Source: Staphylococcus phage AH12 | DNA length: 64,000 nt | Sequence record: OR455461.1 | Direction: 5' to 3' (one strand) | Shown: positions 11,080-49,101 of the stretch, in pieces | Position numbering within the stretch: position 1 is the first letter of the stretch | How the letters are laid out: each line of letters starts with the position of its first letter | Translations under genes and position numbers: made by a program | The notes under the pieces: model-generated | What the model was told of the DNA's origin: nothing | What the model saw: the letters and a program-made list of their open reading frames with translations, nothing else | The model's database searches: none

Positions 11080-13246
11080 TTATTCTTTAGTTAAAGAATA
11101 TAAAGCTTGTACCATATATTTATGATAATTAGACTATATCTTATGATATTTAAATCATTTCCATATTTAGTCGTTGAACAACTTTTATTAAGTTGATGCT
11201 GATTAGTTTTGTTTTTCCAGCAATTAATGAAATTTATTGAGAGCATACAAACTTACTCTCATTACCAACTCCACGTATACTATTTCCTGTGTAGTTTAAG
11301 TAATTAGTTTTCTTATTAATAAGTTTATCAGCTTCTTTATTTGCCTCTACAGACCATAAAGAGCGTATTGAAATCATATCCATTTTATATACATGTATTT
11401 ACATATAATTAGACTATATCTTCTTTAGTAATATATTTAGTCGTTGAACAACTTTTATTAAGTTGATGCTGATTATCTTATAGATTTTCCAGCAATTAAT
11501 ATTATTTAATGATGGTAATATGAAATTTTGCCATCAAAGTCAGCCGTAGTATTAACTTCATATAAATTTTTTATGAAGACTAGACTATATCAAACACTTT
11601 TAATTAAGTGTAATTATATTTAGTCGTTGAACAACTTTTATTAAGTTGATGCTGGTTAGATTTGACATTCCAGCAATTAATAATTTTTTGACATTATATC
11701 GCTATAATGAAAGGTCATTAAAATAGCCAAGTGCTTGAGCATATGAATTGTGTATGATTGCAGTATCTAAGAAAATATCTTCATCAATAGGATATTCTCT
11801 TACTACTTTAGGGTAATCTTTTAATACTATATCATCTAAAACTATTTCTGGAATAGTATCAACAGTAGTTAATATTTTAATTTTAGCAGGGGCTACGTTC
11901 AAGAAATTTTCGCATTTATTATATTTATATAATACTTATATAAATTAGACTATATTATATACTATTTAATAGTACCATTGCATTTAGTCGTTGAACAATT
12001 ATATTTAATTGATGCTGATTAACTTTATTAATAGTATTTCAGCAATTAACAGTGTTTATCGACTTAAATCACTTTAAGAAGCGACCATTTTATTAATCGG
12101 ATATCTTGAATACATAACATGCTTATCTTCTACTATTTCAGTTGCAGCGATATAAAGTAAATCAATTACAGTAAAATCTCTACCTAAAGTATTTTCAAAT
12201 AATTTAACTTTATGACGTTTACCTTCTCTATCATTTACATATATAGGACTAAATCTTTCATTAGGATCTTTAATAAAAAATTCTAGCATATTCTTAATTT
12301 CTTTATCATCAAATTGTTCATAAACTTCCTCTAATGAAAGCTCTTTATCTCCTTCACCTGTAGCTGTTTGGAAAGCATCTTTATGAAGTTCAATAAAATC
12401 AATTATATACTTATTAAAGAATGGTAAGAATAATGTAACTAATTGAGTTAATGGTACACCTAACTCACCAAACTCTATCTGCATTTCATCCCATTTATTC
12501 GAATTAATTTTAGGTGAAGAAATAACTGCACGAGTACTATTATCTACTGTTTTACCCAATATACGTTTTTGCATAAAACCAGTTTTACCTGATAATTCTC
12601 CTGAAGTAAATTTCTGATATATTTCAAATAATGTATTTTGTATATTATATTTAGTACTGTTAGCTATAAATCCGAATGAATTAAAACTAATAGCATCTAC
12701 AGAACGTATAATAGAAGAATACATATTATTAACTTCTTCAGTATCTTGAATTTCTCCTGAAGTTTCATTAGGATTAAAGTCTCTATAAAATGCAGGTATT
12801 ACTAACCATTTATCTACAAATATTTTTTGTTTATCCGTATTCTTAATCATATCAATTTTTTCAGATCTAATACGAGAATCATTCTTTCTAAATTTTAAAT
12901 CATCAAATACTTCATATAAGAAATTCAGTCCAGTGTCTCCATCTTCTGAAGGAACTAATTGACCTTTTTCTACTTTAAAATACTCTGAACCCTGAATACA
13001 TAGTTCAATATTTTTATCTAAATCTTTTAATGCTTTATAAGCTACCGGATTAAGGTATTTATCCTTTAAATTAATCCAACCTAAATTATTTTTTCTTTCA
13101 GGAGTACCTATCAAACCAAATATGTCATATGAAAATAAACCATCATCTTTTGGTAGTATACCCGAATCAAAAAATACAGGGTTGGTTACTTCTTTAGCAT
13201 TAGTGTCAGTTATGACTTGTTCAATATCTATCATATCTACTTTCAT
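11080..13246 (-). CDS. multisubunit RNA polymerase beta-prime-like subunit, N-terminal/catalytic-loop part. Split gene: join(13246..12096, 11912..11717, 11544..11530, 11380..11255, 11112..11080), about 506 aa
   Basis: Exon A contains GKTGFMQKRILGKTVDNSTRAVI, matching the beta-prime [23 protein letters not shown] motif. Predicted spliced product reads ..GYFN-ADFDG-DMISIRSLWSVEANKEAD.., matching ..[26 protein letters not shown]... Exon E gives ..VQALYSLTKE, matching VVLGLYYMTR. Exon borders were derived from P1/IGS pairing and reading frame. Confidence 0.7.
11113..11254 (-). ncRNA. ultra-compact group I intron R4 (142 nt) in the RNAP beta-prime-like gene
   Basis: P1 is exon GAGAGU paired to IGS GCUCUC with terminal U.G, 10-nt loop. 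Same core. Ends ..AUAUAUG before GUACAAGCU (V Q A). The first intron nucleotides encode KFVCSQ* when unspliced. Confidence 0.7.
11381..11529 (-). ncRNA. ultra-compact group I intron R3 (149 nt) in the RNAP beta-prime-like gene
   Basis: Same core. Hairpin UGAUGG(C)-15 nt loop-CCAUCA(A) forms P1. Ends ..AUAUAAAAUG immediately before GAUAUGAUU (D M I). The 5' splice site appears to follow C of GGC, facing A in the IGS. Confidence 0.6.
11545..11716 (-). ncRNA. ultra-compact group I intron R2 (172 nt) in the RNAP beta-prime-like gene
   Basis: Same conserved core. 5' exon ends ..UUUUAAU (Asn). GNRA hairpin CAUUAUA-GCGA-UAUAAUG lies in the P1 loop. Tentative IGS is GUCAAAA. The terminal G sits just before GCUGACUUUGAUGGC. 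Exact 3' splice site is tentative. Confidence 0.55.
11913..12095 (-). ncRNA. ultra-compact group I intron R1 (183 nt) in the RNAP beta-prime-like gene
   Basis: P/Q/R/S cores present (UUAAUUGCUG, AAUCAGCAUC, GUUCAACGACUAAAU, GAUAUAGUCUA). P1 is exon CGAU paired to IGS GUCG with U.G at the splice site. GNRA-capped hairpin CUUAAA-GUGA-UUUAAG. Ends ..AAUAAAUG. The reading frame is restored (AU + C = Ile). Confidence 0.7.
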
Positions 13247-16336: not shown

Positions 16337-18626
16337 CTAAAATTTAACCATATTTGATACGAAAGAACTATTTGAAGATTCTAACACTTTAACTCCAATA
16401 GATTCAATAATATCTTTACCTGGTTTAATGTGATCTTCTATCATTGAATCATAATCAATAAATGGTCTAAACTCTTCAGGTATTTTATTTCCTTCTACAG
16501 CAATTACATTCATTCCATTTTTAACTAATCTTTCGTTTCTAAATATTTCTCTAAATTTATCTAATAATTCTTCATCATCAACTTTATCTTTAATATCTCC
16601 AAATGATTTAATATTTAACTTAACCATTAAGATATTTGATGGAAGAGATATTTCTTTATCTGGATACATTAAATTCCATGATAAAGCTGCTCTATAATTC
16701 ATTTGTGTATAAGGATCTTTATATACTTCTGCATTATTAGCTTTACCAGGTTTTAAGAATTCAATATCACCATTCTCTAATGATTTTTTAATCATCTCTT
16801 CAATTTCTTTATATTTACGTATAATACCAATTCTATCAATACCAGTTTTATTTTCTAAAATATCTTTCTGTAGTATTTCAGTGAATAATTCTCTAATACG
16901 TTTATTAGTATTAACTTTTCTAATAGCCATACCTTTAACATCTAAGTCTGGTGGTTGAACTAAATTACCTTCTTGTTGTATTACTGATGATGCATAAGTT
17001 TTCTTTTTATCTGTTGTTAATTGTTTGTCAAGTAAAACGTTTATACTTATATTTAAAATATAAGACTAGACTATATCATATTCTTTATTATTAAGAATTA
17101 TTATATTTAGTCGTTGAACTTCATTATTGAAGATGCTGATTAAGTTTATTTTGTCTCAGCAATTAATAATATTTACTAATACACATTACTGTATACTGGA
17201 GCATTTACATACTCATTTTTCATTGATATAACACCTAAATGTTCATCTTCTAATCCTAAATCTTTACAGAATCTATGATAAGATAATTCTAGTAATTTAG
17301 TTATTTGATAGTTAATAATAGATATATTACCTACACGTTGTTCTAATTTATCTTCTAAACCATTTTCTGCAATAGGGAAATCTTCAGGTTTCTTTTCTTT
17401 CATTTTTTGATATAATGGATCTAAATGTACAAAGTTACTATCTGTCTTTAATATTATATTTTTAAATATAAAATAGACTATATCATATACTCTTTATGAG
17501 CATCATTATATTTAGTCGTTGAACAATCATATTGATTGATGCTGATTAATTTAATAAATACTTTCTCAGCAATTAATAATGTGAATCAACTTAAATTACT
17601 TTAAGCGGCGACCATGTTATCATAATCGATTGTAAGTACACTTCTACGTTTTTTATAATTCATTCTATACATTCTATTGTAATCTTGATAATTATAGATA
17701 ACCCAGTCTTCTAATATATCAAATAATTCATCTAATAATGGAATCATATCTTCAGGTGGTTCATTTGGATCTAAGAAATCTTCTCTACCAGTCATTTTAC
17801 TAATTTTATTATCAAATATATCTGTATGATCTAATAAACCATAAAGATTATTTTTAAAATAAACTCTATTTTTCTCATCTTGAGTTAAATTACTAAAGAA
17901 TTCTTTCAAATCATTTTCTTCATCTTCAGAGAAATTATATTCTACGTTATCCAATAAACCTTTTAATATTTCATTATCAGTAGGAACTGAATTTATCTTA
18001 ATATCGTGTTCTTTATATTCTTCTTGACATATTCTTACGATATAATTATAAATCTCACTAATATTCATAAAGAATATTTTACTTCCTATAAATCTTTCTA
18101 AAGCTATTGCTGAAGTAGTAACAATATCAACACCACTATATGTGATAGCAGGGCCTGAATAAGGATCATAGAAAATACTATTTCCTTGTATCATTGCACC
18201 ATAGTAACTATTAGCCAAAATCTTAATTGTTTTTTGCTCGTTCATATATTTATGATATTTAATATCGTCTACACCTTTACTTATAAACATATTATGTTTA
18301 GCTACTTTACGTGAGTCAATGAAGTCTTTTAACATCTCTGCATTTAAATTTTTTCTTTGTGATTGTGGTTGATAAATCGAACCTGATCCAGTTACTATTA
18401 AATTTGAATTAATAACTGTACGTAATAAAGAATCAACATTCATTTCTTGACCTGATACTTCTGTCATGACAGGTTTAACATTTTCTTTTACAAATTCTCT
18501 ACACTCTTTTAATATTTCTTCTTTATCAAAATCAGGATTATTCTTTTGAACCATCCATACCAATTGTTCTAAGTATCCGGTTAAAGCTCTTTTTCTTTCT
18601 TCTTTATTCTTTAATTCTGTTGTCAT
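16337..18626 (-). CDS. family-B DNA polymerase, C-terminal catalytic (palm/fingers/thumb) part, encoded as its own gene. Split gene: join(18626..17625, 17445..17193, 17037..16337), about 651 aa
   Basis: Exon 1 has motif B KILANSYYGAMIQG (Kx3NSxYG). Predicted splicing joins ..VLTID to TDSNFV.., giving motif C IDTDS (cf YGDTDS). Exon 3 has the KKxY motif DKKKTYASS. AGGAGGT RBS lies before the ATG at 18626. The N-terminal exonuclease part and motif A are not in this gene. Confidence 0.7.
17038..17192 (-). ncRNA. ultra-compact group I intron (155 nt) between polB exons 2 and 3
   Basis: Same core. P1 is exon GUAU plus intron AC, paired to IGS GUGUAU with U.G at the splice site. Hairpin CUUAUAU..AUAUAAG precedes the 3' end ..AUAAACG. 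The frame is restored (U + UU = Phe). Confidence 0.6.
17446..17624 (-). ncRNA. ultra-compact group I intron (179 nt) between polB exons 1 and 2
   Basis: Same P/Q/R/S core. P1 is exon CGAU paired to IGS GUCG with U.G. GNRA hairpin CUUAAA-GUAA-UUUAAG. Closely related to intron R1, same 5' flank AUGGUCGC..CUUAAAGURAUUUAAGUYGAU. Ends ..AUAUUAAAG. The unspliced frame reads YDNMVAA*. Confidence 0.7.
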
Positions 18627-18757
18627 TTGGTTTACTACCTCCTACATAATTATAAAAATCTAGTTATTCTTTAGTATTAAAATTTTTAAACTATCATTAA
18701 CAAAACATACTATTTATTAATAAACTAAATAAATCTAAGAAAGAGATGTGAAACATT

Positions 18758-19036
18758 TTGTCTAATAATTTATCTTCAATCGAAAAACAAATATTAGAAG
18801 CTACTGATGAAGCTCTTATTCAAGAGCAAAACATCATGCGTTTGGATGAACGTACTAAACGTAAACGTAGATTAAATCAAGCAGCATTAATTGCAGCTAA
18901 AGAAGCTCAAGATCCTATTTATTTTAAATACCAAAAAGCTTCTAGAGCACGTAGAAAATGGCGTGACTTAATTCGTCAAAAATACGCTACTAAAGCTAAA
19001 TTAAAATTAGCTGAGTATGATCACAACAAAAAATAA
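18758..19036 (+). CDS. hypothetical basic protein
   Basis: 92-aa ORF, the only plus-strand gene in this block. Followed by the hairpin terminator at 19047..19080. Confidence 0.5.
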   Translation: MSNNLSSIEKQILEATDEALIQEQNIMRLDERTKRKRRLNQAALIAAKEAQDPIYFKYQKASRARRKWRDLIRQKYATKAKLKLAEYDHNKK

Positions 19037-19829: not shown

Positions 19830-20144
19830 TTAATTTCTAATATATGAAATTACAAATGAAATTACAAATAAAATACTCAATGCAAGAATTACTGTCAATC
19901 CAAATGTTACTATAAAGTCTAAGACAGGACTACCCAAATGGATATCTGGAAAGTTAAATATTGATTCGTTAGGAATATTATCGTCTGGTGTATGTTGTGG
20001 CATATTTGCAGGATTAGTTGGACTAGTGGGATTAGCTGGATGTAAAGGATTATTTGGACTAGCTGGGCTAGCGGGATTACTTGGATTTAAAGGGCTAGCG
20101 GGATTACTTGGATTTAAAGGGCTAGCGGGATTACTTGGATTCAT
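19830..20144 (-). CDS. small membrane-anchored protein with N-terminal Pro/Ser/Asn repeats (NPSNPASPL x3) and a C-terminal TM helix
   Basis: 104-aa ORF. 27-bp tandem DNA repeats encode the peptide repeat. Hydrophobic C-terminus VLDFIVTFGLTVILALSILFVISFVI. Confidence 0.5.
   Translation of the reverse strand: MNPSNPASPLNPSNPASPLNPSNPASPASPNNPLHPANPTSPTNPANMPQHTPDDNIPNESIFNFPDIHLGSPVLDFIVTFGLTVILALSILFVISFVISYIRN
20040..20130. repeat. 27-bp tandem repeat (about 3 copies) inside CDS 19830..20144
   Basis: TTAAAGGGCTAGCGGGATTACTTGGAT repeated head-to-tail. Encodes the PSNPASPLN peptide repeats. Confidence 0.7.
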
Positions 20145-47625: not shown

Positions 47626-49101
47626 TTGGCTGAAGAAAAAGATAAAAAAGAGTCTAAAGAACAAGAACCTTTAAAAGTTGCTGACGATGATATGGCTTTA
47701 ATACCTCAAGCTGATGAGAAAAAAGGTGATTATGACTATCATGAATATGATCCTACTCAAAAAGATACTGGTGCTTTTATGGATGCTTTGGGTAATCAAA
47801 GACAAGCAACTGAATATTTAACAGATAAAAATGCTAAAGATAAAAAACAATTAAGAAATGTTAAAGGTGAACTAGATGTATTTGGAATGCCTATGTACTA
47901 TTCTAGTTTAGATGATCCTAATAGAAGAATATATAAAAGAACATTTGAATTAGATTTACCTTTAGTATTTATAATGCCGGGTATGCCTAAATTAAATGGT
48001 AAATTATTTGGTAAACCAGGAGAAGGTAAATTATGGAGTTTTGGTGAAGGAATGGATAGATTAGTAAACTCTGGGTTATCTTTAGTTGGTATCGGTAATA
48101 CTAAAGATGGTCGTATGATAAGCTTTGAACCTAAAATGGCTGAATATTATAAATATGTACAAACTATGGCTTCTCAAGTTCATGCATCAATGGGATTAAA
48201 AGGATCATTTGATCTAGGTGGATCTCTACAAGATGATAAAAACTATGGACTAGCTTACTATGCAGATAAATCAACTAGTATATCAGAATCTGCAATGCAT
48301 GAATATAATCAATCTGATATTGCTTCTCAAGTTAATAATAAAAACCAAGAAATACGAGAACAAAAAGAAATGGCTCGTATTGGAGGAGCTTCTATTTTAG
48401 GTAAAATTACAAGATCTATTAAAGATAGTGTTAATGATATGGTAGCAAATATGCCAGTTATTGGTGGTATTGTAGGTAACTTTATGGAACATTTAGATGG
48501 TGCAAGTATGTACTATCCCGATGTATGGATGAACTCGACATTCGATAGAACTTATAATCTAGAATTTAAATTCTATAGTGCTTATGGAGATCCTCAATCT
48601 ATCTTTGATAATGTATATTTACCATTCTTGTCACTATTAGTTTTAGCATTACCATTACAAGACTCAATTTTCTCTTATAAGCAACCATTTATTATTAGAG
48701 CTAATTGTCCTGGTAGATTTGAATGTAACACAGGTATAATAACTTCAATGAATATAGTTCGTGGTGAAGAGGGTACATGGACTGCAGATGGTTTCCCAAG
48801 AGAAATTACTGTATCTATTAATATTAGAGATATGTATCCAAACTTAATGGCATCAAAATCATTCCAACGTATGAAATTTAACACAGGATTATTATCTTAT
48901 ATTGATTGCTTAGCCGGAATTAGAAGGGATCAACTATCTATTATTGATAAAGCTCAAATTAATATGAAAACTCAATACTCTAGAAGTATGCAGGTAATTA
49001 AAGGAAGAGTCTTTCAACAACAAATTGATGATGCAATCTATGGATATAAATCCCAATATAATCCTCATCCAAATAGCCCGGGATTGAATATGTTTACTTA
49101 A
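47626..49101 (+). CDS. hypothetical virion-associated protein
   Basis: 491-aa ORF. TTG start after GGAAGTGAAATAAA. Position in the structural block. Confidence 0.5.
   Translation: MAEEKDKKESKEQEPLKVADDDMALIPQADEKKGDYDYHEYDPTQKDTGAFMDALGNQRQATEYLTDKNAKDKKQLRNVKGELDVFGMPMYYSSLDDPNRRIYKRTFELDLPLVFIMPGMPKLNGKLFGKPGEGKLWSFGEGMDRLVNSGLSLVGIGNTKDGRMISFEPKMAEYYKYVQTMASQVHASMGLKGSFDLGGSLQDDKNYGLAYYADKSTSISESAMHEYNQSDIASQVNNKNQEIREQKEMARIGGASILGKITRSIKDSVNDMVANMPVIGGIVGNFMEHLDGASMYYPDVWMNSTFDRTYNLEFKFYSAYGDPQSIFDNVYLPFLSLLVLALPLQDSIFSYKQPFIIRANCPGRFECNTGIITSMNIVRGEEGTWTADGFPREITVSINIRDMYPNLMASKSFQRMKFNTGLLSYIDCLAGIRRDQLSIIDKAQINMKTQYSRSMQVIKGRVFQQQIDDAIYGYKSQYNPHPNSPGLNMFT

Follow-up and report, generated by a model that had tools for sequence, protein, structure and literature searches.

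Two small group I introns in the gene for a probable catalytic subunit of a divergent family B DNA polymerase in Staphylococcus phage AH12

The family B DNA polymerases (PolB) of jumbo phages from group 1 lack a fused exonuclease, the latter being encoded elsewhere, and contain a long helical insert ahead of the second palm strand (Iyer et al. 2021, PMC7824862). In the phages MarsHill, Madawaska and Machias the genes for the DNA polymerase subunits are disrupted by introns, while the gene of phage AR9 is intact (Korn et al., bioRxiv 10.1101/2020.12.14.422802). Group I introns have been described in a range of phage genes, including td, nrdB and sunY of T4, the DNA polymerase genes of SPO1/SP82 and Bastille, nrdE of Twort, and PolB of crAss-like phages (PMC12908238, PMC7886860). 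Here we analyse a polymerase gene on the minus strand of a stretch of 64,000 nucleotides (nt) from Staphylococcus phage AH12 (OR455461.1). This stretch is referred to below as the window, and all positions are given in its numbering.

We propose that positions 18626..16337 very probably encode the catalytic subunit of a divergent two-subunit PolB of the phiKZ/AR9 group, in a gene that is split by two minimal group I introns containing no open reading frame (ORF). The gene arrangement as such is already known, from the annotation of Machias and from the work of Korn et al. and Iyer et al. What is added here is the exact position of the second splice junction, the identification of the inserts as group I introns although the Rfam threshold misses them, and the place where motif A is encoded.

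With a GC content of 25%, the window is strongly AT-rich, and the phage is judged to be an AR9/PBS1-like Staphylococcus jumbo phage, with around 96% DNA identity to Machias. Searches with tblastn and blastn give DNA identities near the polymerase gene of ~96% to Machias (MW349128.1) and ~95% to PB50 (95–97% for these two in the searches), and of 80% to S6, DC4, PALS_2, SA1, Madawaska and MarsHill, with the Bacillus phages AR9 and PBS1 as remoter relatives.

The polymerase protein and its partner

The Pfam scan, which was run on a 651-residue version of the protein made before the second junction was corrected (see below), gives a match to PF20286 (Divergent Family B DNA polymerase, divDNApol) with 172.3 bits (cut-off 25.7, E 1.9e-50), the best stretch being residues 320–648. 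PF00136 is also matched (E 6.7e-11), only from profile position 98 on, that is, after motif A. A sequence search of the Protein Data Bank (PDB) aligns residues 97–226 to residues 452–577 of an archaeal PolB, corresponding to the fingers and to motif B, with KILANSYYG facing the same string, KILANSYYG, in the archaeal protein. In public data, the homologues found (n = 17) are all 629–681 amino acids (aa) long and all contain PF20286, and none of them has a fused exonuclease domain. Residues K135, N139, S140 and G143 of motif B, D334, T335, D336 and S337 of motif C, and K424, K425 and Y427 of the KKxY motif are invariant in 18 homologues. The last of these motifs is found as KKKTY in exon 3, after the second intron, where it had been expected. 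Motif A (DxxSLYPS) is absent from the 645-aa spliced product, and there is no invariant Asp N-terminal to motif B.

A structure model was made for the Machias protein, which is 99% identical. It has the overall fingers, palm and thumb fold, with motif C flanked by strands at residues 330–333 and 338–340. The helical stretch of ~190 aa between motifs B and C corresponds to the insert that Iyer et al. (PMC7824862) describe as specific to the family. The original prediction had described the gene as a separate catalytic part of a polymerase. The Pfam matches, the lengths of the homologues and the presence of a partner gene in relatives all bear this out, the protein having only the fingers, the palm (with motifs B and C) and the thumb.

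The exonuclease half, together with motif A, had been predicted to be encoded elsewhere in the genome. This is the case in the relatives Machias and DC4, but no homologue lies within the 64-kb window. In Machias the partner is gene 137 (Machias_137), annotated as a 'DNA polymerase exonuclease domain protein', which is on the same strand ~18 kb downstream (~18–20 kb across Machias and DC4). It is a three-exon join, with homing-endonuclease ORFs inside its introns. Its exons contain ICLFDIEVDG (FDIEV), and the last exon contains CDFDLSSLYPSIIRGFNITPE (CDFDLSSLYPS), which aligns to residues 404–434 of T4/RB69 gp43 and is motif A. The homologue in DC4, DC4_00046, is uninterrupted and 573 aa long. 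It gives no Pfam match, and in a PDB sequence search it aligns to T4 gp43 residues 106–344, which form the exonuclease domain, and to residues 404–433. The PBS1 (gene 19) and phiR1-37 (g170) homologues of the partner carry the annotation DNA polymerase. From these alignments it would appear that the two metal-binding motifs of the palm sit on different polypeptides in this phage group.

A Pfam scan of nine large ORFs neighbouring the polymerase gene found no exonuclease-type domain. Positions 7–257 of the window match the beginning of Machias gene 135, so that by synteny the partner gene would be expected to start ~2.9 kb beyond position 1, and it probably lies just outside the window.

Splice junctions and structure of the two introns

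The unspliced ORF (18626..17601, 341 aa) ends in ...RRSVLTID followed by YDNMVAA and a stop codon. Exon 2 starts at 17445 with ACAGATAGTAACTTT, which translates to TDSNFV, its TDS codons being ACAGATAGT. As predicted, splicing is needed to create motif C (DTDS): with 17625 joined to 17445 the sequence is ATCGAT/ACAGATAGT, or ID/TDS. In the window this junction reads ACAATCGAT / 179 nt / ACAGATAGT. The predicted boundaries of intron 1 are shown to be exact by alleles that lack it. S6, SA1, Madawaska and MarsHill all align to exon 1 plus exon 2 without an intervening base, and at the junction S6, SA1 and Madawaska read ACAATTGAC/ACAGATTCA (ATTGAC/ACAGAT, again ID/TDS) with zero bases between. 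Intron 1 falls between the two catalytic aspartate codons of motif C; intron 2 lies 11 codons ahead of KKKTY. The residues spanning the junctions in the spliced product are SVLTIDTDSNFVHLDPLYQK (exons 1/2) and NEFLLDK (exons 2/3).

Both inserts are group I introns of a strongly reduced kind. When Rfam is run permissively on an 851-nt stretch, both match Intron_gpI (RF00028) over the full model, intron 1 with 30.7 bits (E 8.2e-6) and intron 2 with 17.9 bits (E 0.054), the only other match being to snoU18 (E 8.5). Around P7 and J8/7, the core strings GUUCAACGACUAAAU and GAUAUAGUCUA follow the Rfam consensus almost exactly. When each intron is folded together with the last 8 nt of the exon before it, the minimum-free-energy structures contain P1, P2, P4/P5, P6, P7, P8 and P9 in both cases. 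In P1 of intron 1, CGAU/UAUG is paired with CAUGGUCG and the last exon U pairs with G; P1 of intron 2 (Table 1) likewise has a U-G pair at the splice site. A terminal G is found in both introns, and in all seven members of the intron family in the window that is described below.

The conserved core helices P3, P4, P6, P7 and P8 are present, together with the P3/P7 pseudoknot. Covariation was counted on the P3–P8 core only, because whole-intron MAFFT alignments are not structure-consistent in P1, P2 and P9. In the seven copies from the window 97.4% of the cells are paired, and 13 of 28 pairs have changed on both sides; none of 500 shuffles gave covariation as high, and slid controls gave 24–54%. 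The 30 copies from Machias, in an alignment that was fitted to the model, have 97.0% of cells paired, with changes to both partners in 17 of 23 pairs (144 cells) and slid controls of 29–53%. P7 is invariant, and so carries no covariation information. With the covariance model built here, intron 2 scores 94 bits. Two other kinds of insert were considered. Inteins are ruled out by the in-frame stops within the inserts, and translational bypassing by the length of the inserts (173–179 nt) and their ribozyme core.

We suggest the following mechanism. A pre-mRNA would be transcribed across the whole region and each intron would fold, with the last U of the exon pairing with G of the internal guide sequence in P1. 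External guanosine would attack at the P1 splice site, and the freed exon would then attack after the terminal G of the intron. The ligated mRNA would be translated into the 645-aa protein, which would work with a separately encoded subunit of ~570 aa, containing the 3'-5' exonuclease domain and motif A with the other metal-binding Asp. The two subunits presumably form a complex, in which the polymerase active site would be assembled from two polypeptides. Splicing of the polymerase introns would probably be autocatalytic.

The position of the second junction needs more careful consideration. A second intron before the KKxY motif is present, as predicted, but the predicted 5' splice site at 17193 lies 18 nt too far downstream: the site is 17211/17210 rather than 17193/17192, and exon 2 ends with T 17211. 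The 18 nt following 17211 encode YVNAPV in frame, and a slip of the boundary by this amount cannot be detected from the reading frame because 18 nt preserve it. It might be argued that 17193 is the true site, giving 651 aa with the extra YVNAPV, or that the true junction is that of the Machias GenBank record (MKNEY/LDKQ, 644 aa), since both keep the frame; furthermore, 17193 also comes after a U, within a hairpin that the Rfam model aligns as P1. We consider either of these very unlikely. Three alleles without intron 2, from PB50 (~95% DNA identity), S6 and SA1, read ATGAAAAATGA(A/G)TT(T/C)..., i.e. ATGAAAAATGAATTTTTA..., which is MKNEFLLDKQ, and the 18 nt are missing in every intron-less allele. 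The window matches this sequence, and does so exactly, only if exon 2 ends at 17211 and exon 3 begins at 17037, giving ...AAAAATGAGT/TTTTACTTG... on splicing. Cutting at 17211 also produces a 6-bp P1 with a U-G pair and a GUAA loop, and the hairpin holding the 17193 site then becomes P2 of intron 2, as in intron 1. Once the boundary is moved, the predicted product of 651 aa becomes one of 645 aa. In the GenBank protein of Machias (644 aa) this place has MKNEY-LDKQ; the junction there was placed by protein alignment to AR9, and would leave an intron terminating in A and not G. The intron-less alleles and the group I rules both point to MKNEFLLDKQ and 645 aa, and the GenBank junction is thus slightly off.

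Two further explanations dispense with splicing. The unspliced frame ends seven codons past exon 1, and in the PB50 and LY01 records the pieces are annotated as separate coding sequences (CDS) or hypothetical proteins, which could be read to mean that this is a degenerate pseudogene, broken by insertions and no longer encoding one protein. Almost no weight can be given to this reading, because the three exons are in frame once the inserts are precisely removed, the exons have 80–97% protein identity to intact alleles with every catalytic residue invariant, the inserts contain a covarying ribozyme core, and the cultured phages Machias and PB50 carry the same inserts (PB50 without intron 2). Alternatively, the pieces could be translated separately and assemble as at least three polypeptides. 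The polymerase of this phage group is after all already split at the protein level, into exonuclease and catalytic parts; the PB50 record has two CDS, and there are ATG-started ORFs inside exon 2 (17403) and exon 3 (16930). Starting at these internal ATGs would however lose the catalytic DTD and KKxY motifs (TDSNFVHLDPLYQK and FLLDKQLTTDKKKTY...). Exons 2 and 3 have no ATG at their 5' ends, and no AGGAGG-like ribosome-binding site (RBS) is evident there by eye, no scan having been made. The break points coincide to the nucleotide with the contiguous sequence of intron-less alleles, and the inserts have the anatomy of group I introns, with a U-G pair at the 5' junction and a final G. Separate translation is therefore highly improbable.

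A number of observations weigh against our proposal of a two-subunit polymerase gene split by group I introns. An Rfam scan of the whole window at the gathering threshold reported nothing, both introns being under the gathering score of 50 (30.7 and 17.9 bits), and the alignment of the 30 Machias copies is biased towards the model to which it was fitted. At 173–179 nt, the introns lack the peripheral elements by which most self-splicing group I introns are stabilised, so that they may need a protein helper, and no P10 pairing of intron 1 with the 3' exon is evident. In addition, the partner gene was not found in the window, where a tblastn search with the exons of the Machias exonuclease subunit gave a best E of 0.18. 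It could be that the inserts are derived from group I introns and are no longer autocatalytic, their removal needing a neighbouring intron or the help of a protein such as a maturase or chaperone, supplied by phage or host. The very small size of the introns, both here and across the family (142–183 nt), would fit this, as would their sub-threshold Rfam scores, their GC content of 20–24%, the loss of P8 in one family member and the reduction of P9 to just 4 bp in another. However, both polymerase introns have kept an intact and strongly conserved P3–P8 core and P7. We regard a loss of autocatalysis as unlikely, while keeping it in view as a genuine alternative.

A family of small introns

The polymerase introns are part of a family of introns without ORFs, 142–183 nt long (Table 1). 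A 15-nt core common to the two introns has seven exact copies in the window, all on the minus strand; with up to three mismatches allowed there are 10 matches, compared to 3.15 expected from shuffles. Every one of the seven elements interrupts a gene, with boundaries that follow from S6 alleles lacking the intron or from conservation of the protein. Searching the Machias genome with a covariance model of the seven copies gave 30 distinct cores. When intron 1 was compared by blastn with 50,697 phage records, matches were found at 29 places in Machias, 19 in PB50, 34 in LY01, 12 in Madawaska and 10 in MarsHill, and in no other genome. S6, DC4, PALS_2 and SA1 have no copies in this search, in agreement, for DC4, with one paper that reports no introns there by Rfam. 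The distribution of matches suggests a lineage-restricted burst with a very high intron density. Default Rfam scans overlook these introns.

The gene for the virion RNA polymerase subunit beta'-N (start at 13246) holds four copies (R1 to R4 in Table 1). In Machias the same gene has three cores and is annotated with three exons. The short forms of R3 (149 nt) and R4 (142 nt) are conserved in Machias. A micro-exon encoding part of the catalytic loop lies between two of the introns, and the exons before both of the introns that flank it end in C instead of U, facing A in the predicted P1 (a C-A wobble). The remaining copy is in nrdE, and it is not reported by Rfam, permissive mode included. Machias nrdE has an extra intron that contains HNH and is absent from nrdE in the window.

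Three pairs of introns share the last nucleotides of the preceding exon and have matching guides: CGAU in polymerase intron 1 and R1, GAGU in polymerase intron 2 and R4, and GGC in R2 and R3, the corresponding 5' exon ends being 17625/12096, 17211/11255 and 11726/11530. This would fit a choice of target by P1 pairing, as in reverse splicing. In Machias, cores adjoin three genes for TnpB/CasX-like 'transposases' (CPT_Machias_089, 208 and 224), in an IStron-like arrangement. The core at CPT_Machias_089 (~79.3 kb) is inside the intron of a virion-protein gene, downstream of the transposase ORF, and those at CPT_Machias_208 and CPT_Machias_224 are ~100 nt upstream of each. The window copy of the virion-protein gene (47626–49101, plus strand) is uninterrupted.

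The Azoarcus intron, of ~205 nt, is usually cited as the small extreme of group I introns, and the introns described here would be smaller. Our tentative proposal, to which we give slightly less than an even chance, is that the polymerase introns belong to a previously undescribed burst family that may spread by reverse splicing or transposition of the insertion sequence (IS) type, and not by homing endonucleases, and, separately, that the polymerase active site is built in trans. If the latter is true, the exonuclease subunit would supply the Asp of motif A and the catalytic subunit those of motif C. So compact and highly multiplied a family could serve as a natural set of minimal ribozymes, and as a model of intron spread without endonucleases.

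Other features were noted around the polymerase gene. A strongly basic ORF of 92 aa at 18758–19036 (plus strand) is its divergent neighbour. The records of Machias, PB50, S6, SA1, Madawaska and MarsHill each have an ORF of 276–279 nt that is equivalently placed and oriented, a comparison of sizes and not of sequences, and in the SA1 record the small ORF beside the polymerase gene is noted as similar to PBS1 gene 41. A small conserved neighbour of the group 1 jumbo-phage polymerase has been named as a possible subunit (Iyer et al., PMC7824862). In LY01 (179.5–184.3 kb) the polymerase gene aligns only from about query residue 163; besides two introns, there is a transposase gene directly upstream, and a further insertion may be present near this residue. 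An ORF of 104 aa at 19830–20144 (minus strand) encodes NPSNPASPL-type repeats at the N-terminus and, after them, a hydrophobic segment at the C-terminus. No tRNA genes were detected in the window by ARAGORN.

Table 1 Coordinates of the polymerase gene and of the small introns in the window
Feature	Position	Strand	Length	Remarks
Shine-Dalgarno sequence AGGAGGT	18637..18643	minus		11 nt before ATG 18626; the Machias record has an RBS at the equivalent place
Exon 1	17625..18626	minus	1002 nt	aa 1–334; ends ...VLTID; contains motif B; GAT, the final codon, encodes the first Asp of motif C
Motif B KILANSYYG	18224..18198	minus		aa 135–143; in exon 1
Intron 1	17446..17624	minus	179 nt	ORF-less group I; P1, P2 (GUAA loop), P3, P4/5, P6–P9; terminal G 17446
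Exon 2	17211..17445	minus	235 nt	TDSNFVHLDP... to ...GVISMKNE plus first base of a Phe codon
Intron 2	17038..17210	minus	173 nt	ORF-less group I; P1 GAGU/AU with AUGCUC, GUAA loop; terminal G 17038
Exon 3	16337..17037	minus	701 nt	Length includes TAG stop; (F)LLDKQLTTDKKKTYASS... to ...SNMVKF and stop; KKxY motif and thumb
DKKKTY	17011..16994	minus		In exon 3; K424 K425 T Y427 at 17005..16994
beta'-N intron R1	12095–11913	minus	183 nt	Junction by intron-less S6 allele
beta'-N intron R2	11725–11545	minus	181 nt	Junction by intron-less S6 allele
Micro-exon GCTGACTTTGATGGC	11544–11530	minus	15 nt	ADFDG of the RNA polymerase catalytic loop; between two introns
beta'-N intron R3	11529–11381	minus	149 nt	No P8 hairpin; junction by intron-less S6 allele
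beta'-N intron R4	11254–11113	minus	142 nt	P9 of only 4 bp; junction by intron-less S6 allele
nrdE intron	59656–59495	minus	162 nt	Exons ~60403–59657 and 59494–58040; ...NQLG/QRNGAG...

Comparison with known systems

The picture that emerges is of the essential polymerase of the AR9-like Staphylococcus jumbo phages, encoded by two distant genes and with introns in active-site codons, an ordinary though intricate arrangement. The exact exon coordinates and the 645-aa product given here correct both the junction originally predicted and the published junction of Machias. A family B polymerase with its metal-binding motifs on separate polypeptides would be of structural interest.

The closest described gene is that of Machias, CPT_Machias_110 (QQO92499.1, MW349128.1), annotated as 'DNA polymerase catalytic subunit', which is likewise a three-exon join, with both introns at the same positions. 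Identity is ~97% at the DNA level across the gene region and 99% for the protein. The difference is in the exon 2/3 junction given in GenBank (644 aa), and the intron content elsewhere also differs. With the divergent PolB proteins of group 1 (phiKZ/AR9-like, PF20286) the protein has in common the DxD (DTD) hairpin, the helical insert of ~190 aa and the unfused exonuclease. In addition to what is described for this family by Iyer et al., the exonuclease protein in the Staphylococcus/AR9-group relatives also has motif A, a point not found in the text of PMC7824862. The PolB gene of AR9 is intact, whereas that in the window is split by introns.

A PolB encoded by two genes is also known from some T4-like phages, such as Acinetobacter phage Acj9, where gp43 is split into 43A and 43B and the N-terminal product contains the exonuclease and motif A (FDVTSLYPSIIRQVNISPE). 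The break is in a different place. Acj9 43A continues via PSGMMY...FFQRKDWKNKM into the fingers, whereas the equivalent sequence in the Staphylococcus phages, TGSGSIY...DSRKVAKHNM, lies in the catalytic subunit. In addition, the C-terminal half in the T4-like phages is a classical PolB and not PF20286. The differing break points suggest that the splits in the T4-like and Staphylococcus phages are independent.

The introns share with other phage group I introns their insertion at active-site codons of an essential replication gene, the P1–P9 architecture, the 5' U-G pair and the terminal G. They differ from them in having no homing-endonuclease ORF, in their length of 173–179 nt, in scoring below the Rfam gathering score, and in being present in many copies per genome with near-identical cores.

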